This document shows, piece after piece, positions 105 to 37,915 of a stretch of 64,000 nucleotides of DNA (positions are counted from its first letter, which is position 1; each line of letters begins with the position of its first letter). The position numbers and the translations under genes were made by a program. Below the pieces are notes generated by a model. That model had not been told where the DNA came from. It saw only the letters and a list, made by a program, of their open reading frames with translations, and ran no database searches. The DNA is from Candidatus Falkowbacteria bacterium RIFOXYC2_FULL_36_12 (lineage in GTDB: Bacteria > Patescibacteriota > Patescibacteriia > UBA11705), in assembly GCA_001778235.1 (NCBI GenBank), contig MFGJ01000008.1:129148-193147 (forward strand). The letters run 5' to 3'.

Positions 105-1853
105 TTACATTTCTTTTATAGCTTCTATATTAAGCAATTCTAAACCCTTTAGCAAGACCTGACTAACTTTCTTTAATAACATTAATCTTGCTTGTTTAAC
201 ATCGTTTTCAGCTTTCAATACTTGATGTTTATGATAAAACCCATTAAATTTCTGGGCTAACTCAATTAAATAGGTACACAAATATGAACCTTGATATTTT
301 TCAGCCGATACCACAATACTTTCCTCAAACAAACTTAGATGCTTTATCAAACTTTGTTCTTCAACTTCCTTCAAAACTGTAAAATCAATATTTTCTTTGT
401 TTTTTTCTTTTTTCAAAATTGAATTTATGCGCGCAACTGTATAAAGTAAATAAGGACCAGTCGAACCCTCAATGGACATAGCCTTTTCCATATCAAAAAC
501 AATTACAGTATTATTCTCGTATTTCAGCATCCAGAATTTCAAGGCAGCTAAAGCAATTTTTTCTGCCGTTGAATCAATTTTCTTAACCGACCAATCAGAG
601 TGTCTCTGCGCAGTCTCATTTATCAGCCTCTTCTTCATTTCTCCAAACAATGACATAAAAGTTATTACATTCCCTTTTCTTGAGGCCATAGCTCCATCAG
701 GCAATGTTACAAAATCATATGCAACATGAATTTTTTCTTTATCTTCATATCCCAATAGATCCAACAATTTAAAAATTTGTTTCATGTACAAACTTTGCCT
801 ATTATCAACCAGATAAATCGATTTATCAATTCCAAATTCATCAAATTTCTTTTTCCCGAGTGGTAAATCTTTTGTCCCGTAGAGAACATTCCCATCAGAT
901 TTAATCAAAACCAATACATCCAGACCAAATTTTTTCAACTCTGCGATTATTGCCCCTTCACTCTCTTTTATTTCAGGGATTGTTTTATTTTTTACAATTT
1001 CATTAATCAATTTCTTGCCTTCAATTTCCTCTTCACTCTCAAAAAACCATTGATCAAATTTTACACCAAGTAAATCATATACAACCTGAAACCCATCCAT
1101 ACTCCACTCTTTTGTTTGTTGCCATAGCTTAACCATATCACTATCCTGATTCTCCAATTTTCTCTGAATTTCAGAAACTTCCTGACTCAACTCTGGATTT
1201 TCTTCTAATTTTTGGACCGCTTCAGCATACATTTGACCAAGAAACTCACCTTTACTTTTATTTTCAACAAGGTAATTTCCACTAGGAAACTTTTTTTGTA
1301 AAAACCACAAACATTTTGCCACATGCACTCCAGCATCACCAATATAGTTGGCTGCTATCACCTCATTACCTTGATATCGCAAAATATTAACCAGTGATGA
1401 CCCAAGGCAAGCATTTCGTAAATGTCCCACATGAAATTCCTTATGTGTATTTGGTTGTGAATACTCAACCATAACTTTACTCGCTATTCTCACTTTACTC
1501 GCTGTACTCGCTGTACTCGCTGTACTCACTTTTCCCGCTTTCAACACACTTTCATTCCATTTCCCGAGTTTTAACTGAAAATTCAAGTATGGCCCAGTAG
1601 CCTCAACCCTTTCCCAAAGATTACCTTTAATTTGAGTCAATTTTTTACTTAATTCACTGGCAAACTGTGCAGGATTTTGTTTTTTTTCTTTTGCTAGCTG
1701 AAAAACTGGCAAAGCAAATTGCCCCAATTCAATTTTTGGTGGATTAGCCAAAATATTTTCTTCAAACTCCGTATTCAAAATTTTATTTATCTCTTCAACC
1801 AATTGTTTTTTTATACCTTTCATATATTTATTATTAAAGTCACAATTCATCAC
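105..1853 (-). CDS. argS: arginyl-tRNA synthetase
   Basis: Class I HIGH motif (HVGHLRN) and overall ArgRS layout. The track start is GTG; the true ATG may be 1850 or 1823. Confidence 0.9.
   Translation of the reverse strand: MMNCDFNNKYMKGIKKQLVEEINKILNTEFEENILANPPKIELGQFALPVFQLAKEKKQNPAQFASELSKKLTQIKGNLWERVEATGPYLNFQLKLGKWNESVLKAGKVSTASTASTASKVRIASKVMVEYSQPNTHKEFHVGHLRNACLGSSLVNILRYQGNEVIAANYIGDAGVHVAKCLWFLQKKFPSGNYLVENKSKGEFLGQMYAEAVQKLEENPELSQEVSEIQRKLENQDSDMVKLWQQTKEWSMDGFQVVYDLLGVKFDQWFFESEEEIEGKKLINEIVKNKTIPEIKESEGAIIAELKKFGLDVLVLIKSDGNVLYGTKDLPLGKKKFDEFGIDKSIYLVDNRQSLYMKQIFKLLDLLGYEDKEKIHVAYDFVTLPDGAMASRKGNVITFMSLFGEMKKRLINETAQRHSDWSVKKIDSTAEKIALAALKFWMLKYENNTVIVFDMEKAMSIEGSTGPYLLYTVARINSILKKEKNKENIDFTVLKEVEEQSLIKHLSLFEESIVVSAEKYQGSYLCTYLIELAQKFNGFYHKHQVLKAENDVKQARLMLLKKVSQVLLKGLELLNIEAIKEM
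1477..1539. repeat. 9-bp periodic tandem repeat tract (TTACTCGCT/GTACTCGCT, about 7 units) in frame inside argS
   Basis: Direct reading: ...tttactcgct attctcact ttactcgct gtactcgct gtactcgct gtactcact tttcccgct. It is translated on the minus strand as ...STASTASTAS... Confidence 0.7.
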
Positions 1854-1872
1854 TAATTCTCAATCTTCATCA

Positions 1873-2370
1873 TTACTTCCTATATCTCAACCGATCCAGC
1901 TTCTCAATAATATTTTCTTCTTTTTGTAAAATCTGATGTTGTTGTTGCAGAATTTTATCTTCAATCTTTTGAGTTTCTCTGATTTTATCAAGGAAAACAT
2001 CTCCTTCCTTATCAAAATCTTGTTTTACGCTACGAAAATACGGACGCATAAAAAGCGAACTAATCAAGATTAATACTTGCACCACAAAAATTATAAATAA
2101 TATCACTACCAAACTAAATGTCACGAGAGAAATCATTCTTCCTACCAAAGTAATTGCTGACAAATCATCATTACCAAATTTAAAAATATTTTCCACAATA
2201 CGGAATGAATCATTTAGATCGCTGACTTCTGGGTTAATTTGATTTTCAACAATAAACAACAAAAAATTTGCTGATATTAATATAATAACAAAAAACAATC
2301 CCAAAAAACCCAATATCAACCATGATTTTCTTCTTTTTAATTTAGCCTCCATATTTTTTCCTATTGGCAC
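1873..2370 (-). CDS. hypothetical membrane protein (2 predicted TM helices, C-terminal coiled coil)
   Basis: Long hydrophobic stretches, then a charged heptad-like tail. It is wedged between tyrS and argS. Confidence 0.55.
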   Translation of the reverse strand: MPIGKNMEAKLKRRKSWLILGFLGLFFVIILISANFLLFIVENQINPEVSDLNDSFRIVENIFKFGNDDLSAITLVGRMISLVTFSLVVILFIIFVVQVLILISSLFMRPYFRSVKQDFDKEGDVFLDKIRETQKIEDKILQQQHQILQKEENIIEKLDRLRYRK

Positions 2371-2407
2371 TCTGAACCTACAACAAAGGTTTCAGGGGAT
2401 TTATAAA

Positions 2408-3601
2408 CTATTTTATTTTTACAAAATGCCTCTTACCCTTTTGGACAACATCACCGCTTTTAACTTCAAACTCAACCGAATTTATAATTTCATCATTTAT
2501 TTTAACTGCTTTTTGCTCTACCATTCTCTTTGCTTCAGATTTTGAAATTACAAGGCCTGTCTCAATCAAAACATCTACAATATTAAAATTTGAAACTGTT
2601 TTTTCCTCAATTTCATCTGGCCGTTCCTTCTTCTGAAACATTTGGACAAAATTTTCTTCAGCCTTATCAGCCCTATCTTCATCAAAATAAAACTCAACAA
2701 TTTCCTTGGCTAACTCAACTTTCAAATCTCTTGGATTTTCACCTTGTTTCAATCTTTCTTCAAATAATTTTAATTTAACCGATTCAACCATTGTACAAAG
2801 TTCAAACCCCGGAATAATCATGCCATCTGTCCAGCTCATTACCTTGCCAAACATATCATCAGGACTATCAGCCAAAGTAATCATGTTTCCTTCAGATTTT
2901 CCCATTTTTATTCCTGATGGATCTGTCAATAATTTATTAGTCAAAACAAATTTTTCCTTCATTCCAAGCGATTTCATCAAATCCCGACCAGCAAGCATAT
3001 TAAAAGTCTGATCATTACCACCGACTTCACCATCAACATCCATTGCAACTGAATCATAACCTTGCATCAGCGGATACAAAAATTCATGTAAACTAATCGG
3101 TTTACCCTCTTTCATTCTTTTCTGGTACATATCCCTCTCAAGAAACTGCTGGACCGTAAAATTTGAAGCCAAATCAATCACCTGCCGAAAATCAAGTTTA
3201 TCTAACCATTTATGATTAAACTTTATTTCAACTTTATTCTTACCAGTGAAATCAAGTATTTTTTCAGCTTGTTTTTTATAATTTTTAGCATTTATCAATA
3301 CTTGTTCTCGAGTCAAAGGCTTTCTAGTTGCAGATTTGTCAGTCGGGTCACCAATCATTGCAGTAAAACTACCAATTAAAATTATAACCTGATGCCCAAG
3401 CTGTTGAAACTCGCGAAGCTTCATAAAATTTATCGCGTGTCCCAAATGCAAATCAGTTCCGGTCGGGTCAATACCTAAATATAGAGTTAATCTTTGCCCA
3501 GACTTTAATCTTTTCTCTAAAAATTCTCTGCTCGGATAAATATTCTGCACGCCTCGAGTTAATAACTTTTCTATTTTCTGGGAATCTGTATCAATTTTCA
3601 T
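2408..3601 (-). CDS. tyrS: tyrosyl-tRNA synthetase
   Basis: HLGH (HIGH) and KMGKS (KMSKS) motifs with a C-terminal S4-like domain. The ATG at 3601 was verified. Confidence 0.9.
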   Translation of the reverse strand: MKIDTDSQKIEKLLTRGVQNIYPSREFLEKRLKSGQRLTLYLGIDPTGTDLHLGHAINFMKLREFQQLGHQVIILIGSFTAMIGDPTDKSATRKPLTREQVLINAKNYKKQAEKILDFTGKNKVEIKFNHKWLDKLDFRQVIDLASNFTVQQFLERDMYQKRMKEGKPISLHEFLYPLMQGYDSVAMDVDGEVGGNDQTFNMLAGRDLMKSLGMKEKFVLTNKLLTDPSGIKMGKSEGNMITLADSPDDMFGKVMSWTDGMIIPGFELCTMVESVKLKLFEERLKQGENPRDLKVELAKEIVEFYFDEDRADKAEENFVQMFQKKERPDEIEEKTVSNFNIVDVLIETGLVISKSEAKRMVEQKAVKINDEIINSVEFEVKSGDVVQKGKRHFVKIK

Positions 3602-3612
3602 ATAATTTATTT

Positions 3613-6600
3613 TTATTCTAATTCTTCTAATTGATTTTGTAATTTTTCTATCTTTTCTTTTGCTTCATTAAATTTCCTTTGTTCTTCAGCCACCACCAGT
3701 TCAGGAGCATTTTTCATAAATTCTTCATTTCCCAATTTTTTCTCCAAACCTAATACATATTTTTTACTGTTATCAATCTCACTCTTCAGTCGTTCAATTT
3801 CCTTATCAATATCAAGCAATTCAGCCAAAGGCAAATAAATTTCCACATCTGAAACAATCGCGGTCGCAGATTTCTCTGGTTTTTCAATTACCAGTTCAAT
3901 TTTTTCTAAACGGGCTAAGCTCATGATTATGCCAAATTGACTTTGCAATCTCTCTCCAGCTTTTATTTGAATCTTTATTTTTTTCGCCGGATCAATTTTG
4001 TATTCAGAACGCATATTTCTTATTTTCCCAATCACAACCTGCAGTTGTTCAAACTCTTTCACTCCCTCTTTATCAATCATTTTCTTATCAAATTGTGGAA
4101 ATTTACTTACCATCAACTCTTGTTCTGAACCTAAATTTTGCCAAATTGCTTCAGTCACAAAAGGCATGAACGGATGCCACATTTTGAGCAAATTTTTCAA
4201 TATATGAATCAAAACCACATCTTTGTCATTTTCAACCTTAGCAATTTCCAAATACCAATCAGCCAAATCATTCCAAGTAAATTCTTTTAATAAATCTCCC
4301 GCACCTGAAAAATTATACTCATCAAGCATTTTTGTTACATCCTGAATCAAAGTATTAAATTTTGACAATATCCATCTATCACTCAAACTAACATTTTTAT
4401 TCAATTCAAATTTTGAGTCTCTTTTTTCAGGATTCAATGTCATCAAAATATACCTAGAAATATTCCAAAGTTTATTAACAAAATTTCTATATCCTTCAAT
4501 TTTTTCATCATAAAGTCTAATATCATTACCAGCCGTATTACCAATAAGCAAACTCAATCTTACCGCATCAAATCCATACTTATCTCCAGCCTGAAGCGGA
4601 TCAATTGCTGTTTCAGGTTTTGATTTTGACATTTTATCTCCATTTTTATCTCGAACCAATCCGTGCAAATACACATTTTCAAATGGAACCTCTCCCTTTA
4701 CATAGGTTGTCATCAAAATCATTCTAGCCACCCAGAAAAATAAAATATCATAACCAGTCTCCATCACAGTTGTTGGATGAAATCTTTTCATGTCTTTACC
4801 CTCAAATTTTTTCCCATTCCAATCTTCGGGCAACAAAGTTGAAAAAGTCCAAAGACCTGAACTGAACCAAGTATCTAGAGTATCTGAATCCTGATAAATA
4901 TTTTCCAATCCATTCGGAGACTCTACATTGGTTAATTTTATTTTTATATTTTCACCTGTTTCAGGATAACCAAGTTTAAAAATTTCTTCATCAGTTAAAT
5001 TTTTGTGCATCCCTTGAGCCATTCTAAGCACATCTCCATGGCTAACAACCAACACCTTTTTCCCTGAATATTTTTTCAATATATCTGTTAAACAACTGAA
5101 AACTCGCTTTTTTTGGTGCAGAAAAGATTCAATTCCCTTTGGGCTATCATTTCTCCAAGCTTCAAAATCAGCTTCGCGAAAATGGACAAAATCTCCTACC
5201 GACTTGCCTTCAAACTCACCAACACCCACTTCCCTCAATCTTTCATCAAATATTACTTTTAATTTTAATTCTTTATTTAATATTCCAACTGTTTCTTTTG
5301 TCCGACTAAAATCAGAAGCATAAATAATATCAAACTTTTCATTTTTTAATTTTTCAGCCATTATTTTAATTTGCTTCTTACCTGTTCCAGTCAAACCATT
5401 TTCCAGATTATCAATATCTGAACTCAAAACTCCTTTTTCATTTGTCTTAGCTTCTCCATGTCTCTGCAAAACAATTTCAGTCGGCTTGGCATCAGAAATA
5501 ATCGGCTGTTTTAAATCCTTGTCATACCAAACAGGAATTTGGTGTCCAAACCAAATCTGACGGGAAATACACCAATTATGTAAATTTTCCATCCAATGAA
5601 AATAAACCTTTTCAAATCTTTCTGGAATTATATTAATTTCTTTGTCTTTTACTACCTTGATTGCCACTTGTTTCAAGCTTGCTCCATTACTGAAATATTT
5701 ATTACCTTTTTTTGTGATTTTTTTATTGACATCAATAAACCATTGATCAGAAATTAATGGCTCAATCACTGTTTTACATCTATAACAGACAGATATTTTA
5801 TTATCATAATCATCATCAATCTTCTCAATCAACCCCATAGCCTTCATATCCTTTACTATTGATTCTCTCGCTTCCAAACTTGTCATCCCAACATATTTCC
5901 CACAATTAGCCATCATCCGACCATCTTCATCAATAATTTGCTTGATAGGTAATTCATTTCGCTCGGCAATCTCATAATCAACCAAACTATGCGCTGGAGT
6001 CACTTTTACCGCTCCTGTTCCGAATTCTGGGTCTACAGCCTCATCTGCAACTACAGTTATCTCAAACTCACCCAAAACACCTGGGATCATATACTTTTTA
6101 CCAATCATCGATTTATACCTTTTATCCTTTGGATTTACCGCTACGGCTGTATCACCAAGTTTTGTTTCTGGTCTAGTTGTTGCCAAAACAAACGGACCAT
6201 ATTTAAGCCAATACAACTTACTTTTAGTTTCTTTATATTCTATTTCATCATCTGCCAGAGTCGTATGACACCGCGGACACCAATTTACAATCCTATTGCC
6301 CCTGATTACAAGACCATCATCATACATCATTTTGAAAACTTTTCGCACCGCCATACTACGAACATCATCTAGGGTATATGTTTCTCTACTCCAATCTACA
6401 CTTGAACCCATTTTTCTAGTCTGATTGGTAATTGTTTTCTTGCTCTGACTTACAAAATCCTCAACTTTATTCAAAAAAGCTTCTCTACCTAAATCATGTC
6501 TGGTTTTTCCTTCGTCATTGAATATTTTCTTCTCCACAACATTCTGTGTTGCGATCGCCGCATGATCAAAGCCTGGCAACCAAAGAGTATCAAAACCCTG

Positions 6601-6816
6601 CATTCTTTTGTATCGAATCATCAAATCTTCAATCGCCAACATTGCCGCATGTCCTAAATGCAAAGAACCTGTCACATTTGGTGGTGGCAGTACAATTGAA
6701 AAAGCCTTACCTTTATTATTAATTGTATCAGGATTAAAAAATTTCTTTTCTTCCCAATTATTGTAAATTTTTTCCTCAAAATCTTTTGGGCAATAAGCTT
6801 TTGGCAATTCTTTCAT
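3613..6816 (-). CDS. valS: valyl-tRNA synthetase with an internal histidine-phosphatase (PGAM-like) domain insertion
   Basis: PPPNVTGSLHLGHA, WCISRQIWFGHQIP, DTWFSSGLW and KMSKS motifs are present. The protein is 1067 aa with about 195 extra residues between the PVWY and DTLDTWFSS blocks. Confidence 0.9.
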   Translation of the reverse strand: MKELPKAYCPKDFEEKIYNNWEEKKFFNPDTINNKGKAFSIVLPPPNVTGSLHLGHAAMLAIEDLMIRYKRMQGFDTLWLPGFDHAAIATQNVVEKKIFNDEGKTRHDLGREAFLNKVEDFVSQSKKTITNQTRKMGSSVDWSRETYTLDDVRSMAVRKVFKMMYDDGLVIRGNRIVNWCPRCHTTLADDEIEYKETKSKLYWLKYGPFVLATTRPETKLGDTAVAVNPKDKRYKSMIGKKYMIPGVLGEFEITVVADEAVDPEFGTGAVKVTPAHSLVDYEIAERNELPIKQIIDEDGRMMANCGKYVGMTSLEARESIVKDMKAMGLIEKIDDDYDNKISVCYRCKTVIEPLISDQWFIDVNKKITKKGNKYFSNGASLKQVAIKVVKDKEINIIPERFEKVYFHWMENLHNWCISRQIWFGHQIPVWYDKDLKQPIISDAKPTEIVLQRHGEAKTNEKGVLSSDIDNLENGLTGTGKKQIKIMAEKLKNEKFDIIYASDFSRTKETVGILNKELKLKVIFDERLREVGVGEFEGKSVGDFVHFREADFEAWRNDSPKGIESFLHQKKRVFSCLTDILKKYSGKKVLVVSHGDVLRMAQGMHKNLTDEEIFKLGYPETGENIKIKLTNVESPNGLENIYQDSDTLDTWFSSGLWTFSTLLPEDWNGKKFEGKDMKRFHPTTVMETGYDILFFWVARMILMTTYVKGEVPFENVYLHGLVRDKNGDKMSKSKPETAIDPLQAGDKYGFDAVRLSLLIGNTAGNDIRLYDEKIEGYRNFVNKLWNISRYILMTLNPEKRDSKFELNKNVSLSDRWILSKFNTLIQDVTKMLDEYNFSGAGDLLKEFTWNDLADWYLEIAKVENDKDVVLIHILKNLLKMWHPFMPFVTEAIWQNLGSEQELMVSKFPQFDKKMIDKEGVKEFEQLQVVIGKIRNMRSEYKIDPAKKIKIQIKAGERLQSQFGIIMSLARLEKIELVIEKPEKSATAIVSDVEIYLPLAELLDIDKEIERLKSEIDNSKKYVLGLEKKLGNEEFMKNAPELVVAEEQRKFNEAKEKIEKLQNQLEELE

Positions 6817-7088: not shown

Positions 7089-8210
7089 ATGTCACTAACC
7101 GAAACACAACAAATTTACGAAGCTCTAAAAAATAGCCAAAACGCACTAATCACTTTCTCACCCAATGCCAATGGTGATGCCGTCGCTTCTAGTTTGGCCT
7201 TATCTCTTTTATTAAAAAAAATGAACAAAAATCATGAGATAGTCAGTAATAATTTTTCAGCCTATGATTTATACCATTTTTTACCAAATATAACTTCTAT
7301 AAAAAGTACTCTGACGGGTTTACGAAAATTTTTGTTAAAATTAAATTTACAATCAAATGAGTTAAACAAAATGAATCACTTTATTGAAGACTCATTTCTC
7401 CATATTGAACTCGAACCAAAATCTGGCATATTTTCAGAATCAGATCTTCATTTATCTCATTCAAAGTATAAATATGATTTGATTATTACCATCAGTACCC
7501 CTGATCTCGAATCCCTTGAACAAATATTTGAACACCATACTGATTTCTTCTACCAAACACCAATATTAAACATTGACCATTCTACTGACAATGAATATTT
7601 TGGTCACTACAATTATGTCAATGTAACCGCTTCATCAGCTTCAGAAATATTATATGATTTAATTAATAATATTGATAAAAATTTAGTTGATGAACCTATT
7701 GCTACCTGCCTTTTGACAGGAATGATCCTAAAAACTCAAAGTTTCCGAACCACCAAAGTTACTCCAAAAAGCTTAAACATTGCAGGAGATCTAATAGCTA
7801 CCGGAGCAGATAGGGCAAATATCATTCGTAATCTCTACCAAACAAAATCTCTAAATACTCTAAAACTTTGGGGCAAACTGCTTCAAAAACTTGAACTTAA
7901 TCAATCAAAACAAATTGCTATTTCTCATCTTACGCTTGATGATTTCAAACAAACAAAAAGCACTCCCGAACAAATCCCAGGAGTGATTGAAGAATTGATT
8001 ACCAATATTCCTACTATCAAGTTAACAGTTATTTTTTATGAAACACAAAACTCTCTTTCAGTCCTTATAAAATCTGAAAATGATCTAAATCTCTTGGAAA
8101 AACTTTATTTATTCAACCCAAAAGGTAATAAAAACATGGTAAAAATCAAACTTGGACCAGCAGATAAAATCAAACTACTCGAGAAACTATACACTATAAT
8201 AACCAAGTAA
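7089..8210 (+). CDS. DHH/DHHA1-family (NrnA-like) phosphoesterase homologue with substituted catalytic motifs
   Basis: The NANGDAVASS motif resembles DHH motif I (GDAxGS). IDHST sits where DHH is expected, with His replaced by Ser. Confidence 0.45.
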   Translation: MSLTETQQIYEALKNSQNALITFSPNANGDAVASSLALSLLLKKMNKNHEIVSNNFSAYDLYHFLPNITSIKSTLTGLRKFLLKLNLQSNELNKMNHFIEDSFLHIELEPKSGIFSESDLHLSHSKYKYDLIITISTPDLESLEQIFEHHTDFFYQTPILNIDHSTDNEYFGHYNYVNVTASSASEILYDLINNIDKNLVDEPIATCLLTGMILKTQSFRTTKVTPKSLNIAGDLIATGADRANIIRNLYQTKSLNTLKLWGKLLQKLELNQSKQIAISHLTLDDFKQTKSTPEQIPGVIEELITNIPTIKLTVIFYETQNSLSVLIKSENDLNLLEKLYLFNPKGNKNMVKIKLGPADKIKLLEKLYTIITK

Positions 8211-8348
8211 ATACTACTTCACAAACCCATTTTTTTATGCTATTATAGCTTTAGTTTCCTAATTCAAGGTTACTTGAGACATAGAATAACTCAATCACAC
8301 ATTCACACTTTACTTGCATTTCTCGCTTTGTTCTTATCTCGCTTTTTC

Positions 8349-8425
8349 GGGCCTGTAGCTCAGTTGGTTAGAGCACCACTCTTATAAAGTGGGGGTCATG
8401 GGTTCAAGTCCCATCAGGCCTACCA
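8349..8425 (+). tRNA. tRNA-Ile, anticodon UAU
   Basis: Cloverleaf folded by hand: 7-bp acceptor stem, anticodon stem ccact/agtgg, loop cttataa, TTCAAGT T-loop, 3' CCA encoded. Close to E. coli tRNA-Ile except for the anticodon. Confidence 0.8.
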
Positions 8426-8426
8426 T

Positions 8427-8503
8427 GGGCAATTAGCTCAGTTGGTTAGAGCGCATCATTGACGTTGATGAGGTCAGAAGTTCGACTCTTCTATTGCCCA
8501 CCA
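8427..8503 (+). tRNA. tRNA-Val, anticodon GAC
   Basis: Acceptor gggcaat/attgccc, anticodon loop ttGACgt, T-arm agaag-ttcgact-cttct, encoded CCA. Confidence 0.85.
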
Positions 8504-8560
8504 CATACCGTCTTGTATGTGGTCCACATCGAAAAATGCATTTATATGTATTTTTTATTT

Positions 8561-8590
8561 TAAAATAAAAGCACCACCATATAGGTGGTG
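8561..8590 (-). terminator. Rho-independent terminator-like hairpin (caccacc-atata-ggtggtg) with a T-run on the minus strand
   Basis: 7-bp perfect stem at 8572..8590. On the minus strand it is followed by ttttattttaaaa. Confidence 0.4.
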
Positions 8591-8891
8591 GGCAGGGGTA
8601 GTCTTTAGGTACGATCATGGTAAAAAATATTACCAATCAATTGAACCATGTCAATCAGATTTTGCCAATTCGCCCCACTAAAAAAGATTACTCTTTACAT
8701 AGATAATTGGTCGATAAATCAACATTATCATTGTCCAACCATAAAATGGATAAGCTTAGCATATTAATTATATGAATTTTAACTTGAATTGTCAAATTAA
8801 ATCCTTTATTTGTAGATTTGTGGTAAATTTGCAATTTGTGGACAATACTTTTTTCTTTAAAAACAAAAAAGAGTCTGCTTATTAACAAACT

Positions 8892-9155
8892 CTAACAACT
8901 TTTCTTCAAAACCGCCATTGTCACATTTGAATCAAGATAATAATCATGCAGATTGAAATAGTGAATTTGACCGATATTATCAACTGCTTTAATTCCAAAT
9001 TTCTTCAAATCAAATGCTCTAAATGAAATATAATCATCAAATCCAACTCCAATCACTCTCATCAATGAATCTTCAGCAATCACATTCAACCAGAAAATTT
9101 TTCCAATATAGAAAACTTCATTCAAACTCACTTCAGCATCTCTTCGTCCATCCAT
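8892..9155 (-). CDS. hypothetical protein (87 aa from the ATG at 9155)
   Basis: The ORF track start is TTG. An internal ATG is preceded by AGGAAGGAG at good spacing. Confidence 0.45.
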   Translation of the reverse strand: MDGRRDAEVSLNEVFYIGKIFWLNVIAEDSLMRVIGVGFDDYISFRAFDLKKFGIKAVDNIGQIHYFNLHDYYLDSNVTMAVLKKSC

Positions 9156-9186
9156 GATTTGCTCCTTCCTCGAAGGCAAGCTTGAT

Positions 9187-10077
9187 CTACCTCAAATTAA
9201 CTTGCTCCCACCCACTATCCTTTTTTTCATACAACCGAATATAACTATCTGTCTTCTTTGTCCTCATACTCTGACGCAATAGCATCTGGGCTTGGTATAA
9301 TTCAGGGAAAACTTCTTCCTTGATTTCTAGTCGCAGGAAAAGAGCAAAGCTCTGTCCGACACTAAAATGAGTCTTTTCCACAAAAATATCTCTTGTCATA
9401 TCAAACATTTCTCTAGTTAATTCATCCATTTCTAGTCTTTCAGAAAATCCATCAAAGAACCCCACAATCAGTTGCTGAGCACGCTCTGCCAAATCAGGTT
9501 GAACCATAGTAATACTATTTACCATTGCCACGACCTTACGTTTTCCATCACTCGATTCAAATGTGATCTGCCTACGCAGTGTGCCATCATCATTCAGTAA
9601 ATGAGGATAAATATGCCGACTCAAATAATTATTTCTAGCCTCCAGAGCTTTTATCACTGCATCATTGAGTTCAAACACAATCGCGATAATTTCATCTTGA
9701 GCTTCTTGTTGCGCTTTAACCTTAGCCACCAATTCAGCCTGTCTTATTCGGAGCTCCTGTAGTCTTTCTTCTTCTTGCCGAATCTTATTTCTAGCCTCAT
9801 CTCGCTCCTTGGTTAATTCTTTGTTTAAATCAGCAAATCTCTTAAAAATATCAGCAATTCTCTTTGATTTCGATTTGAGTTTCTTTGAACCCTTTTTACG
9901 ATCTTCCAATCTTTGTTCCATTTCTCCCAAAACATCAACCGTATCCAAAGATGTGCTTACGAATTCACGAAACTTTTTAACCCAAGATTTTCTAACTTCC
10001 TCTTCCTTTTTACGCAACTTTTTCAAATTTTGTTCAACAACAGCAATCGCTTTCTTTACTTGCTTCAATGCTTCCAT
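9187..10077 (-). CDS. hypothetical coiled-coil protein (297 aa from the ATG at 10077)
   Basis: N-terminal K/E/R-rich heptad region and a C-terminal globular part. AGGAGG lies 6 nt upstream of the ATG at 10077. The upstream 26 codons of the track ORF are likely 5'UTR. Confidence 0.55.
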   Translation of the reverse strand: MEALKQVKKAIAVVEQNLKKLRKKEEEVRKSWVKKFREFVSTSLDTVDVLGEMEQRLEDRKKGSKKLKSKSKRIADIFKRFADLNKELTKERDEARNKIRQEEERLQELRIRQAELVAKVKAQQEAQDEIIAIVFELNDAVIKALEARNNYLSRHIYPHLLNDDGTLRRQITFESSDGKRKVVAMVNSITMVQPDLAERAQQLIVGFFDGFSERLEMDELTREMFDMTRDIFVEKTHFSVGQSFALFLRLEIKEEVFPELYQAQMLLRQSMRTKKTDSYIRLYEKKDSGWEQVNLR

Positions 10078-10117
10078 TTCCTTCCTCCTGTCTCCTTGGC
10101 AAAGAACATAACAAACA

Positions 10118-10157
10118 ACTTTAACATAATAACAAAAAAATGTCAATTTTGACATTT
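10118..10157 (-). promoter_or_regulatory. Promoter (minus-strand TTGACA-17-TAAAGT) overlapping the perfect palindrome AAATGTCAA-TT-TTGACATTT
   Basis: Palindrome at 10138..10157. The -35 is rc of 10141..10146, the -10 is rc of 10118..10123, about 35 nt upstream of the 10077 start. Confidence 0.4.
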
Positions 10158-10161
10158 AAGA

Positions 10162-10455
10162 TTATTTCTTTTTTATTAACCGACATTTCTTAAGCCCATA
10201 ACCACACATAACACGAGTAATTTTTATATCATATGCATTCCCAGCAATTATCCTTTTAGAATGATCACCATTTACATGCATTACCTCACCGCATTGAAAC
10301 GAAATTTCAGTAACATCACACTCATCTAGATATCTAACAAAATTCACTACATCAATAATCTGTATGGTATTATAATCATCACTACAAGAAAGAACATAAT
10401 TAAAAACCAATACATCTAACAATTCAAAGAAACTTACCACTATCCCCCTAAACAT
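10162..10455 (-). CDS. hypothetical protein (97 aa from the ATG at 10455)
   Basis: GGGAGG sits 5 nt upstream of the ATG at 10455. The longer track ORF has no SD. Confidence 0.4.
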   Translation of the reverse strand: MFRGIVVSFFELLDVLVFNYVLSCSDDYNTIQIIDVVNFVRYLDECDVTEISFQCGEVMHVNGDHSKRIIAGNAYDIKITRVMCGYGLKKCRLIKKK

Positions 10456-10529
10456 CTTTGCCTCCCTTCGCCTCCTTGACTGAATAACCTTAAATTTAAC
10501 ACTACAATCAGAACTTGTCAATACAATCC

Positions 10530-11261
10530 TTATACAATCTGTTTCCAACTATAAATCTCTTTTTCTACCAAATAATTCAGCCAATCTTTCATAAAAACAA
10601 CAATTTTGTTGAGTAAATCTTGCTTTATTACCAATTTTGGAAAAACTTTTTGATCATTAATAAAAATCAATCTCAAAAATTTAATAACATTTTCATCAAT
10701 TTTTAACTTTTCACAGTTACATTTTGAACATATCATAGAATTATCATGCCAAGAAAAATAAGCTTTTTCACCTACTTTATTATTGCACTTTACACAACTG
10801 TACAACTCTGGACTATATCCTAATAATTTCATAAGCTGGCAAGCAAAATAAATAACAATTATTTTTTTACTATTTTTATCGCTTGTTTTTTCAAGCCTTC
10901 GAATAGTATCAATTACCAATTGCCACTCCAATAAATTTTTATCCTCCAATTCTAGAGACTTTTCCAACAATTCAAATATAATATTTATATAAATAAAATC
11001 TTGCTCTAAATTTAAATCAAACTTTTCAATCAATCTTGCAGATGCCAATTTATCAAAACTATTTTTTGATCGAGCAATCATTAAATCAACCAATCCATAA
11101 CTGCTCAAATGTCCCATCAATTTACTCTTTATTTTTTTCGACCCAATTGCTACCGCCTGAATTTTACCAAAATTTTCAGTATAAAAAGAAAAAAGACTGT
11201 CATTTTCCCTCCAGTCTTTTCTATTTAAAACAAATCCAATTGTCTTATAAGTTTTATCCAT
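10530..11261 (-). CDS. recO: DNA repair protein RecO
   Basis: N-terminal OB-fold region and a C-terminal CxxC...CxxC zinc motif (CVKC...CSKC). The track start is TTG; the ATG is at 11261. Confidence 0.75.
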   Translation of the reverse strand: MDKTYKTIGFVLNRKDWRENDSLFSFYTENFGKIQAVAIGSKKIKSKLMGHLSSYGLVDLMIARSKNSFDKLASARLIEKFDLNLEQDFIYINIIFELLEKSLELEDKNLLEWQLVIDTIRRLEKTSDKNSKKIIVIYFACQLMKLLGYSPELYSCVKCNNKVGEKAYFSWHDNSMICSKCNCEKLKIDENVIKFLRLIFINDQKVFPKLVIKQDLLNKIVVFMKDWLNYLVEKEIYSWKQIV

Positions 11262-11276
11262 ATCAATAATCAAACA

Positions 11277-11669
11277 TCAAAGTCTTTCAAAATAACTTTG
11301 TAATATTGCTGCTGCCGCAATATCATCATCACCAACCTTTTTATATCCTTTAAATTCTTTCTTCATGCTTTCAGCATATTTTGTTGACATTCTTTCATCT
11401 TCCAAATGGACTAACTTTCCAAACTGTTTAATCCAATTTAAAAACTCCTCAAAATTTTTATGTAAATTTTCTTCTCCAGCCAGCGTTTTTGGTTGCCCGA
11501 TTATTAATTCGTCAATTTTTTCATCATCTATCAATTTCTGGATACTTTTAGCCAATTCACTTAAATTTTTATAAGATAAAATCAATATCGGACTGGAAAT
11601 TTTCATTTCACTTGTACCCAGAGCAAACCCAATTTTCGATTGACCCCAATCAATACCAAGATAATTCAT
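11277..11669 (-). CDS. ruvX: Holliday-junction resolvase-like nuclease RuvX/YqgF
   Basis: MNYLGIDWGQSKIGFALG N-terminus typical of YqgF. Confidence 0.85.
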   Translation of the reverse strand: MNYLGIDWGQSKIGFALGTSEMKISSPILILSYKNLSELAKSIQKLIDDEKIDELIIGQPKTLAGEENLHKNFEEFLNWIKQFGKLVHLEDERMSTKYAESMKKEFKGYKKVGDDDIAAAAILQSYFERL

Positions 11670-35362: not shown

Positions 35363-37915
35363 TTAAATAATTTTTGCGTTTGGATAATTTTTACTTAAAT
35401 CTTCTCTTTGTTTTATTGACAAATTCTTACAATAAATTTTCCCCTGGAAAGCAACCGGCAGTTTCAAACCTTCAGCCGTCTTTAATCCTGACAAATCAAT
35501 ATCACCGCCAATGTTCTCGGGCAGTTTCAAACCATCAGCTGTCGTTAATCCTGACAACACAAGATCCCCACCAATGCTCTCGGGCAATTTCAATCCTTCA
35601 GCTGTCGTTAATCCTGACAACACAAAATCCCCACCAATGCTCTCGGGCAGTTTCAAGCCTTCGACTGTCATTAATCCGTTCAAAAAAAGATCACTGCCAA
35701 TGCTCTCGGGCAATTTCAATCCTTCAGCTGTCGTTAATCCTGACAAATAAAGCTTACCGCCAATACTCTCGGGCAGTTTCAAGCCTTCAGCTGTCGTTAA
35801 TCCTGACAACTCAAGATCCCTGCCAATGTTCTCGGGCAGTTTCAAGCCTTTAGCCGTCGTTAATCCTGACAAATCAAGATCCCTGCCAATGTTCTCGGGC
35901 AGATTCAAGCCTTTAGCCGTCGTTAATTTCATCAAAGACAAAGAGCCACCAATAATCTCGGGCAATTTCAATCCTTCAGCTGTTGTTAAATCCTGCAACT
36001 CAAGATTACCACCAATACACTCTGGCATTATCAATCCTTTAGCCGTCGTTAATCCTGATAAATTAAGAAGTCCGCCAATGCTCTCGGGTAGTTTCAAACC
36101 ATCAGCCGTCTTTAATCCACGCAATGCAAGAGAGCCACCAATACTCTTGGGCAGTTCCAAGCCTTTAGCGGTTGTTAATCCTGACAAATAAAGATTACCG
36201 CCAATACTCTCGGGTAGTTTCAAGCCTTCAGCTGTCTCTAATCCTGACAAATAAAGCTTACCGCCAATACTCTCGGGCAGATTCAAGCCTTCAGCCGTCG
36301 TTAATCCTGACAAATCAAGATTACCACCAATAATCTTGGGCAATTTCAATCCTTCAGCCGTCGTTAATCCTGACAAATCAATATCCCTGCCAATGTTCTC
36401 GGGCAATTTCAATCCTTCAGCTGTCGTTAATCCTGACAAAGAAAGATTACCATAATGAAATTTAATTTCACCACTCACAGCTTCCTCATTTGTCAAGCTT
36501 ATCTTATCCTTGGGAAAACCTGTCACCACCACCAAATCAGCCCTTATATCCTTTCGGTTACTCTTGATTTCTTCCAAACGCGGATCAGCCTCATAACCAA
36601 ATCCTTTAATTTTACCGTCAAACTCATACAAAAATCTCAAATCACTCTTTGCCAGTTCTTGCCCTTGTCTATTTCTCTCCCAAACATCTGTCAATTGCTC
36701 CATATCTGCAGTCTTCTGCTTGTACTCATCTCCTTCCTTGCCAAATTCATCCATTTTCTTTTCCACCACTGGACCAATATATGGATCCAGATTCTGATCA
36801 GTCGCTATACCTCGGACTTCAGCGATTTTTTCTTTCCCCTCCATGCGTATCGCAATCCTAGGAATCACAGCTTCACCATCTTCATTATAGGAATAATAGA
36901 CATAAAAATCTCCTCCTGCCAACTGTTTTCTGGCCGTCTCAATATCAGCTGTGCACCATTCTAGTGGATAACCCTCAAGGCTTTTTACCAACTCATCCGG
37001 TTTTGATTTCTGCGGGAAAATTTTCCACTCTCCTTTAATTTCCTCCAGTCCTTCAGTCGCGTATTCAGGAATTTCCAGTAAAAATTGTGCGTAAAGTTTG
37101 GCAAAGTTTTCCTTCGATAATAATTTAATAAATTCATTTTCCTTTAATTTCTTACTGTCATTTTTTATTTGCAATTTCAACAATTCTTCCTCTCTTTGTT
37201 CTTTGGGCTTTTGCTTTTCTCTCGCCACCCTTTCTTTTTCTTCCAAATAACCAATCATCACTCCGATTGTTTTTGCCAAGGCCCGAGAGTTCAAGAGTGG
37301 AAAGGTGTTTGTAGTTGAACCAGTTCTTCGCTGAAACTGCGCCTTGACGCTTCCATTTATGTCTTCTTTTTTCACCAACTTGCCCATTTTCAGCATTGAA
37401 GTAAACGCCCAATACTTGGCCCACATCGGATACTGGGCATCGTCTGAAGTCAGGTAATTGAACCAAGTTTCTAAACTTTTCGCTTGGTTGTTTCTCACCA
37501 CCACCAACGACTGCTCCCTCATTTCTACCGGAAAAATATAGTTGACAATCTGCTCATCTGACTCATCTCTGATTACTCTTTTTTCCACCCCATTTTGTTC
37601 CAAATCTCCACCATATCCCTGACGAATCATTATTTCCGCCTGGTTATTCCAATATCCTTGAGGTATGTCATCAAGTGTTAGTGTCACATATCTCCGGTAA
37701 TAATATTGTTTTAGTCGTTCCATCACTTTCGGATCATCTCTGTGCCCCAAGTGGGTTCGCTCCAGCACCTTCATCCAATCCGACAACTTTTCCGCTGGCT
37801 TTTGCGTAGTCTGCTCACCACGCCGTTTTTTCCTATCCTGTTCATGCATCGCCGGATCAGACAAATGAAGCTCTGTATCTTTTTGATGTAAAAATTTTTC
37901 TCCAAAATTTGTCAT
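35363..37915 (-). CDS. large repeat protein: about 480-aa unknown N-terminal domain plus about 22 tandem 20-aa Leu-rich (LRR-like) repeats
   Basis: C-terminal 20-aa repeats, consensus LDLSGLTTAEGLKLPESIGG; no signal peptide seen. The start overlaps the trmH stop (ATGA). Confidence 0.6.
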   Translation of the reverse strand: MTNFGEKFLHQKDTELHLSDPAMHEQDRKKRRGEQTTQKPAEKLSDWMKVLERTHLGHRDDPKVMERLKQYYYRRYVTLTLDDIPQGYWNNQAEIMIRQGYGGDLEQNGVEKRVIRDESDEQIVNYIFPVEMREQSLVVVRNNQAKSLETWFNYLTSDDAQYPMWAKYWAFTSMLKMGKLVKKEDINGSVKAQFQRRTGSTTNTFPLLNSRALAKTIGVMIGYLEEKERVAREKQKPKEQREEELLKLQIKNDSKKLKENEFIKLLSKENFAKLYAQFLLEIPEYATEGLEEIKGEWKIFPQKSKPDELVKSLEGYPLEWCTADIETARKQLAGGDFYVYYSYNEDGEAVIPRIAIRMEGKEKIAEVRGIATDQNLDPYIGPVVEKKMDEFGKEGDEYKQKTADMEQLTDVWERNRQGQELAKSDLRFLYEFDGKIKGFGYEADPRLEEIKSNRKDIRADLVVVTGFPKDKISLTNEEAVSGEIKFHYGNLSLSGLTTAEGLKLPENIGRDIDLSGLTTAEGLKLPKIIGGNLDLSGLTTAEGLNLPESIGGKLYLSGLETAEGLKLPESIGGNLYLSGLTTAKGLELPKSIGGSLALRGLKTADGLKLPESIGGLLNLSGLTTAKGLIMPECIGGNLELQDLTTAEGLKLPEIIGGSLSLMKLTTAKGLNLPENIGRDLDLSGLTTAKGLKLPENIGRDLELSGLTTAEGLKLPESIGGKLYLSGLTTAEGLKLPESIGSDLFLNGLMTVEGLKLPESIGGDFVLSGLTTAEGLKLPESIGGDLVLSGLTTADGLKLPENIGGDIDLSGLKTAEGLKLPVAFQGKIYCKNLSIKQREDLSKNYPNAKII
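35400..36450. repeat. Near-identical 60-bp tandem repeats (coding, within the LRR-like gene)
   Basis: Repeating ...ctctcgggcagtttcaagccttcagctgtcgttaatcctgacaa... units, GC-richer than the surroundings. Confidence 0.8.

Follow-up and report, generated by a model that had tools for sequence, protein, structure and literature searches.

A predicted histidine phosphatase nested within valyl-tRNA synthetase of Patescibacteria

The valS gene and the domain inserted at CP3

Aminoacyl-tRNA synthetases (aaRSs) are among the most conserved enzymes, and to our knowledge the catalytic domains known to be inserted into them are editing domains. Here, we analysed a 64,000-nucleotide stretch of the genome of Candidatus Falkowbacteria bacterium RIFOXYC2_FULL_36_12 (hereafter "the window"), in which the gene for valyl-tRNA synthetase (ValRS), valS, encodes a histidine-phosphatase-type domain between the two halves of the Rossmann fold. 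The original prediction, made from the DNA letters, had placed this domain at positions 4897–5484 and had counted about 195 extra residues; on the reverse strand, these coordinates correspond to residues 445–640 of the 1067-residue open reading frame (ORF) it described, and the surplus came to about 185–190 residues, in agreement with that count. The motifs it had quoted (LQRHGEAKTNEKG, YASDFSRTKETV, and VVSHGDVLR) are all present in the protein. The features of the gene are given below, where conservation refers to 50 orthologous single inserts and catalytic residues were assigned by sequence alignment to PhoE (1EBB/1H2E) and PspA (4IJ5).

3613..6816 (-), valS, an uninterrupted ORF of 1067 amino acids plus stop that encodes ValRS with the nested phosphatase domain (Pfam and NCBIfam)
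5524..6816 (-), ValRS residues 1–431: first Rossmann half, CP1 editing domain, and CP2, ending in GHQIPVWY; aligns to residues 2–421 of T. thermophilus ValRS (1GAX)
6649–6660 (-), HLGH (the HIGH motif), residues 53–56, within ValRS 1–431
6163–6180 (-), CP1 editing motif TTRPET, residues 213–218, within ValRS 1–431
5971–6021 (-), CP1 editing-domain stretch GTGAVKVTPAHSLVDYE, within ValRS 1–431
5545..5577 (-), CP2–CP3 linker NWCISRQIWFG, residues 414–424, matched by motif comparison to its equivalent in yeast isoleucyl-tRNA synthetase (IleRS), ARDWNVSRNRYWG
4885..5523 (-), whole CP3 insertion, residues 432–644, including short CP3 hairpin/zinc-knuckle remnants at both ends that have lost their Cys
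4966..5475 (-), His_Phos_1 domain (PF00300), residues 448–617; Pfam E 2.9e-34, AlphaFold2 predicted local distance difference test (pLDDT) 87–96
5455..5463 (-), RHG motif with R452 and the nucleophile H453, aligned to PhoE and PspA; H453 in 50/50 and R452 in 46/50 inserts
5440..5442 (-), N459, phosphate-pocket Asn, 50/50 inserts; role from PMC12051542
5302..5304 (-), R505, second phosphate-binding Arg (in SRTKET), 50/50 inserts
5230..5232 (-), E529, proton donor (in RLRE), 50/50 inserts; aligns to the Glu of PhoE and HFP
5038..5040 (-), H593, second catalytic His (in SHGD), 50/50 inserts
3616..4884 (-), ValRS residues 645–1067: DTLDTWFSSGLW, second Rossmann half, KMSKS, anticodon-binding domain, and C-terminal coiled coil
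4621–4635 (-), KMSKS, residues 728–732, within ValRS 645–1067

The ORF was recognised as a valine–tRNA ligase by the NCBIfam models NF004349 (1013 bits, cut-off 704) and TIGR00422 (931 bits, cut-off 612), and Pfam found Anticodon_1, Val_tRNA-synt_C, and tRNA-synt_1, the last split into two pieces by the His_Phos_1 domain that sits between them. The ValRS motifs (H53 and G55 of HLGH, KMSKS at 728–732, TTRPET, and the editing Asp D280) fall in invariant columns of a 60-sequence alignment, and an AlphaFold2 model of the full-length protein based on a 60-sequence alignment reached a mean pLDDT of 90.5 and a predicted template-modelling (TM) score of 0.83, with no segment below 50. Superposition of the modelled ValRS core on 1GAX gave a TM score of 0.84. 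HIGH, KMSKS, the editing site, and the anticodon domain all being intact, the synthetase half is a complete and presumably functional ValRS.

The insertion lies in the subdomain called CP3 in IleRS and ValRS, a variable region between CP2 and the second Rossmann half that binds zinc in T. thermophilus IleRS (PMC7191050). The spacing from GHxIPxW to DxLDTWFSS is 214 residues in the window ValRS versus 22–42 in insert-free Patescibacterial ValRSs, and T. thermophilus ValRS, which aligns up to residue 421 and again from 442, has about 20 unaligned residues at a point where the window protein has 199 more; the estimate of 185–190 extra residues follows from these spacings. Since the segment is absent from the insert-free relatives and from T. 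thermophilus ValRS, it is not an ordinary element of ValRS. The insertion begins at residue 432, 8 residues past the CP2–CP3 linker, whose equivalent in yeast IleRS contributes to the binding pocket for the CCA end of the tRNA (PMC7955072), and the catalytic Arg-His follows the conserved Trp of GHxIPxW by a median of 14 residues (22 in the window protein). Such short tethers are predicted to hold the phosphatase, which occupies a surface loop, beside the acceptor-end pocket of ValRS. Several orthologues retain a CxxC before the phosphatase and a CxC after it, which shows the domain to lie within the zinc knuckle of the ancestral CP3. The window protein can be aligned with them there but has kept none of the four Cys. 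The position in the chain, past the linker and ahead of the second Rossmann half, is that of CP3 in class Ia enzymes such as 1GAX and IleRS. Canonical CP3 is a hairpin or zinc knuckle of 20–70 residues with no catalytic role, whereas CP3 of the window protein appears to host a complete enzyme of about 190 residues.

The match of the inserted domain to His_Phos_1 is strong (118.9 bits against a gathering threshold of 21.7, covering profile positions 1–171 of 194), and the segment 4897–5484 gives E 1e-35 when excised. All residues expected from the catalytic roles described for the histidine phosphatase family (PMC12051542, PMC3866925) are found in the window protein and are conserved in 46–50 of the 50 orthologous inserts, although the inserts share only about 30–50% identity with one another and diverge at about 2.3 times the rate of the ValRS core. 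Further residues, for example R547 and W554, are invariant within the group to which the window insert belongs, which suggests an insert with its own specificity. Modelled alone, the insert reached a pLDDT of 94.2, and AlphaFold2 and Foldseek together predict the alpha/beta/alpha sandwich fold of histidine phosphatases: all of the top 50 Foldseek matches to the excised insert are His_Phos structures, the best of which include PhoE, HFP, CobC, PspA, and Rv2419c, with PhoE (1H2E) as the best neighbour in the PDB. PhoE of B. stearothermophilus (1H2E/1EBB), PspA/iPSP1 of Hydrogenobacter (4IJ5), HFP of Aquifex (9MMH), and the alpha-ribazole phosphatase CobC (6E4B/6NRU) share the fold at E ~1e-14 to 1e-13 and TM scores of 0.67–0.77, and like the insert they comprise about 170–200 residues with RHG, Asn, a second Arg, Glu, and a second His. 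They differ from it in sequence (20–28% identity) and in being free-standing, whereas the window domain is nested in another enzyme. Compared with the minimal core of SixA, the window insert has two short specificity insertions. Alignment and model thus describe a putative small PhoE/PspA/CobC-like histidine phosphatase of branch 1. Because motifs and catalytic residues are conserved and both folds are confidently modelled, both halves of the window protein look functional; the original prediction had already called the phosphatase fold apparently intact.

The exact protein occurs on 11 contigs from several assemblies. Its deposits from Candidatus Falkowbacteria (OGF30957.1, OGF34385.1, and OGF47281.1) bear the NCBI name "hypothetical protein", UniRef100_A0A1F5SW44 is named "Valine--tRNA ligase", and the 90% cluster is represented by a 488-residue fragment. 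Signs of a recent insertion were sought in the DNA: no repeats were found at the insertion boundaries, the GC content of the insert (0.327) is like that of the core halves (0.355 and 0.324), and its codon-usage cosine (0.931) agrees with that of core blocks (0.914 ± 0.026), so that its composition matches that of the host. Pfam found no Hint or endonuclease domain in the protein, and an intein or mobile insertion was rejected on this ground together with the lack of boundary repeats and of foreign composition. PADLOC defence models gave no match.

Distribution and exchange of the inserted domains

Of the ValRS clusters, the 120 nearest to the window protein include 56 with a phosphatase domain at the CP3 site, under names that include Falkowbacteria, Peregrinibacteria, Komeilibacteria, Parcubacteria group, and Patescibacteria group. 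The architecture, which had been called highly unusual, is so for aaRSs generally but common within the Patescibacteria, where PF00300 is also present in 120 of the 120 closest relatives of one domain-bearing IleRS (P0146) and in fusions with arginyl-tRNA synthetase (ArgRS) and QueC. The P0146-related IleRSs come from Parcubacteria, Minisyncoccota, Liptonbacteria, Zambryskibacteria, and Harrisonbacteria, among others, and all of the domain-bearing clusters, of ValRS as of IleRS, are Patescibacterial where a name is given; some of the IleRSs derive from the GW2011 genomes of 2015 and are annotated plainly as "Isoleucine-tRNA ligase". In full-length IleRS examples, the domain splits tRNA-synt_1 at about positions 265–288 of 414, that is, at CP3 as in ValRS.

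When the insert alone was used as the query, exhaustive HMMER searching returned 14,249 superfamily members, only 3 of them below E 1e-30, and many of the best 150 matches are long proteins. The 18 long proteins that were scanned are all tRNA-related: 17 are class I synthetases, mostly type-2 IleRSs with one or two copies of the domain but also one with four copies in tandem (P0172) and an ArgRS with a C-terminal copy, and one is a QueC–His_Phos fusion. In GTDB reference genomes, the sequences most similar to the insert lie nearly all inside ValRS-like or IleRS-like frames of Patescibacterial metagenome-assembled genomes (MAGs), and free-standing forms predominate only at lower similarity and outside the Patescibacteria. 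From these sequences, the ultra-small Patescibacteria appear habitually to attach this phosphatase to tRNA-charging enzymes.

Several individual proteins extend this range of architectures. P0172 (1161 aa), an apparently truncated class I aaRS, contains four tandem His_Phos_1 domains (417 bits in total by Pfam), and P0217 (579 aa) joins QueC, an enzyme of queuosine precursor synthesis and hence a tRNA-related host that is not an aaRS, to a C-terminal His_Phos_1 of the same general clade. P0243, an Ile/Val-type synthetase of 1066 aa, combines an in-frame IS200-like Y1 transposase (residues 340–461), His_Phos_1 (680–854), and a GNAT acetyltransferase (935–1063); an NCBIfam model for IleRS with GNAT ("ileS_w_GNAT", NF040702) already exists. 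MAGs at five loci (L010, L013, L019, L025, and L028) that carry a Patescibacteria-type ValRS-phosphatase are titled "uncultured Gammaproteobacteria bacterium" (binchicken) and are likely mislabelled.

The CP3 site of ValRS also holds other contents:

P0091, P0092, and probably P0068: ASCH domain, insert of 144–151 aa
P0067 and P0128: Ser_hydrolase (PF06821), insert of 196–221 aa
P0061: phosphatase plus ASCH, insert of 323 aa
P0058: two phosphatases flanking a further domain, insert of 537 aa
P0071: content like that of P0058 plus Ser_hydrolase, insert of 714 aa, the middle domain having no Pfam match

In P0065, a 97-aa insert without Pfam match occupies the site. Insert-bearing and insert-free enzymes are interleaved in a neighbour-joining tree of the ValRS core, and the phosphatase inserts form at least four groups. 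The window insert belongs to group A, which lies closer to certain free-standing phosphatases of the Patescibacteria than to the other ValRS groups, and a larger domain tree mixes the domains borne by ValRS and IleRS with free-standing ones; the domain trees are neighbour-joining trees of about 165–190 columns, and their topology is indicative only. The N-terminal cores of P0038 and P0040 are 74–76% identical to that of the window protein, much like those of P0027 and P0028, yet the inserts of the first pair are 30–34% identical to the window insert and those of the second 44–51%. With the cores equally close, the cassette must have been replaced in P0038 and P0040.

A NUDIX domain in the IleRS at locus L001 was considered as a further CP3 cassette and rejected, as Pfam places it at residues 327–452, upstream in the CP1/CP2 region. 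The NUDIX domain is one more hydrolase housed within a class I aaRS of the Patescibacteria, and a free-standing NUDIX gene (7548–8060) lies directly upstream of this IleRS gene (8066–11515).

Gene neighbourhoods

The genes that follow valS in the window are co-directional with it and tightly spaced, and recO is nearby, as in other loci.

105..3601 (-), co-directional genes downstream of valS: tyrS (2408–3601), a 165-aa ORF (1873–2370), and argS (105–1853)

The 64-kb window contains no second His_Phos gene. Elsewhere, free-standing phosphatases (P0009, P0004, and a Moranbacteria copy at L029) lie directly downstream of argS, and the order argS then His_Phos is seen at L001, L005, and L029. A TrhO-like gene precedes argS at L001 and L029, and at L005 a gene for an Ile/Val-type synthetase follows the phosphatase. 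These argS-linked phosphatases are 69–77% identical to each other, with the adjacent ArgRSs being as low as ~40% identical. The domain is also fused to the C-terminus of an ArgRS (P0257), which was found on two independent 70-kb contigs. The phosphatase of P0257 belongs to a different lineage, 38–41% identical to the free-standing argS-linked group, so that at least two phosphatase lineages are associated with ArgRS.

Some other genes of the window are of separate interest. The 165-aa ORF (1873–2370, reverse strand) has only a marginal EI24/CysZ-like match (E 5e-4), and an 850-aa ORF at 35363–37915 (reverse strand) has no Pfam match at E 1e-5. The divergent neighbour of valS (7089–8210, forward strand) encodes a 373-aa DHH-family protein whose only recognised part is the N-terminal DHH domain, with a weak match (E 2.5e-8); an NrnA-like nanoRNase/pAp phosphatase and a divergent family II pyrophosphatase are candidates for its identity. 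About 1.5–1.6 kb from valS, the forward strand encodes tRNA-Ile with the anticodon UAU (TAT in the DNA; 8349–8425) and tRNA-Val(GAC) (8427–8503), both with encoded CCA. A genome-encoded tRNA-Ile(UAU) is uncommon in bacteria, most of which decode AUA with a lysidine-modified CAU tRNA, and its presence may bear on the specificity of IleRS in this lineage.

Possible function and significance

We consider it fairly probable, though well short of assured, that the protein is bifunctional, ValRS and phosphatase in one chain, and that the phosphatase serves a role linked to class I aaRSs or tRNA metabolism. The original prediction had suggested a moonlighting or regulatory module, for example one acting on a phosphorylated nucleotide or tRNA end, or a domesticated insertion. 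From the sequence we infer a phosphatase activity, its type of substrate, and its coupling to aminoacylation. By the chemistry of the family, the domain would hydrolyse phosphomonoesters via a phospho-His453 intermediate, with R452, R505, N459, and H593 holding the phosphate and E529 acting as proton donor and general acid/base. The insert is one of a pool of related cassettes that are repeatedly attached to Patescibacterial class I aaRSs (at CP3 of ValRS and IleRS, at the C-terminus of ArgRS, or as a gene beside argS), and this restriction of hosts, together with the gene neighbourhood, suggests a substrate connected with aaRS or tRNA metabolism. Among the candidates, we rank first a small phosphomonoester of nucleotide type, which adenylate-forming enzymes may yield as a product or by-product; a generic metabolite phosphate ranks second, and tRNA ends bearing a phosphate, or phosphoproteins, come last.

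Attempts at a closer assignment were uninformative. All NCBIfam subfamily models scored below their cut-offs, both for cofactor-dependent phosphoglycerate mutase (dPGM_arch 97 vs 225, pgm_1 38.5 vs 81.7, and GpmB 52 vs 261) and for other phosphatases (CobC TIGR03162 91 vs 163, PspA 63 vs 350, and SixA 33 vs 74.5), so that none of them could be used to assign a substrate, and the structural neighbours of the excised domain, generic small phosphatases alone, do not discriminate either. These scores and a domain length of only ~170–185 aa speak against a cofactor-dependent phosphoglycerate mutase, true mutases having a longer cap and a C-terminal tail; the earlier label "phosphoglycerate mutase (PGAM)-like" is apt for the fold but not for a true mutase. 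Among fusions with nucleic-acid enzymes, the closest is the Rv2228c-type RNase H/CobC-like acid phosphatase (NF005567; E 2e-22 with the insert), which differs in its partner, in being joined end to end rather than nested, and in score (80 against a cut-off of 326). Class I aaRSs are known for accepting domains into the Rossmann fold, and the window ValRS fits this habit. Like the CP1 editing domain, the INS domain of ProRS, and the N-acetyltransferase of the NF040702 IleRSs, the insert is a lineage-specific extra enzymatic domain within one aaRS chain; unlike the known inserted catalytic domains of aaRSs, which hydrolyse mis-acylated products, it would be of phosphomonoesterase type.

Several observations weigh against the reading as a bifunctional enzyme coupled to aaRS or tRNA metabolism. 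In the ArgRS fusion P0257 the phosphatase follows the anticodon-binding DALR domain, so the geometry of the domain relative to the tRNA is not conserved, which argues against strict action in cis on the acceptor end. No NCBIfam equivalog reached its cut-off on the insert, 4 of the 50 single inserts (subtype xHGTTxDN) lack the RHG arginine, and a distant free-standing relative (P0010) lies among serine-biosynthesis genes (serA/serC-like). In addition, CP3 accepts unrelated ASCH and Ser_hydrolase domains and its cassettes have been swapped, as would fit a merely permissive site.

The last point leads to the best-placed rival, to which we give a minority but appreciable chance. CP3 would simply be a tolerant surface loop of an essential, constitutive protein, in which an ordinary phosphatase (PhoE-like and broad, or specific for phosphoserine or sugar phosphates) gains guaranteed expression in a tiny genome with no link to aminoacylation. 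The occupation of the same ValRS site by ASCH, Ser_hydrolase, and tandem or mixed cassettes of up to 714 aa, the cassette replacement in the near-identical scaffolds of P0038 and P0040, and the faster evolution of the insert (2.3 times the core) would all be expected of such hitch-hiking, as would free-standing homologues in and outside the Patescibacteria, the position of P0010 beside serA/serC-like genes, and the generic small-molecule phosphatases among the structural neighbours. A random process, however, should sample other essential proteins, and 18 of 18 long hosts are aaRSs or tRNA enzymes; nor does it account for the free-standing copies that stay adjacent to argS in diverged genomes or for the independent phosphatase lineage fused to ArgRS.

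A more specific version of the coupled function, rather unlikely in our judgement, is quality control or repair at the synthetase. A phosphatase by the CCA pocket of ValRS and IleRS would remove a phosphate that blocks charging: a damaged tRNA might carry a 2'/3'-phosphate or an opened cyclic phosphate at its 3' end, or a toxin kinase might have phosphorylated the tRNA or the synthetase. In a broader sense, CP3 of Patescibacterial class Ia enzymes would be a plug-in socket for exchangeable cassettes directed at tRNA or nucleotides (phosphatase, ASCH, and serine hydrolase).

Less probable again is a catalytically dead structural or regulatory module, in which an enlarged CP3 would bind tRNA or a partner or sense an allosteric ligand. 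Insertion beside an active site would be a classic allosteric architecture, and the loss of the RHG arginine extends from the four single inserts to the first domains of multi-domain cassettes, likewise of the xHGTTxDN type. Against this, none of the six catalytic residues is missing from the window protein, and five do not vary across inserts that are ~30–50% identical; invariance amid such divergence would scarcely be expected unless selection acted on catalysis or, at the least, on the binding of phosphate. Finally, a chimeric ORF due to mis-assembly or mis-calling, or a recently acquired mobile or intein-like element, is effectively refuted. The transposase within P0243 does illustrate that mobile DNA lands in such genes, but the domain sits in frame between the Rossmann halves, the protein is found identically on 11 contigs, its architecture is common to more than 50 orthologous ValRS clusters, and Hint or endonuclease domains, boundary repeats, and a composition unlike that of the host are all lacking.

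In the open-access full-text literature, we found no description of a histidine phosphatase within ValRS or IleRS or of a phosphomonoesterase in any aaRS, and a 2026 survey of domain insertions mentions editing domains as the sole insert type for aaRS hosts. The sequences and the automatic name "Valine--tRNA ligase" are already public, and the architecture is apparently undescribed, as we found no paper on it. CP3 emerges as a naturally permissive socket with exchangeable contents, which may be useful for engineering aaRS fusions. For the Patescibacteria, with their minimal genomes and poorly understood physiology, the architecture is widespread and apparently under selection: over a large part of the group, ValRS and IleRS repeatedly carry a predicted phosphomonoesterase next to the active site, and ArgRS has one fused or adjacent to it, which points to an unrecognised activity tied to tRNA charging or nucleotide turnover.

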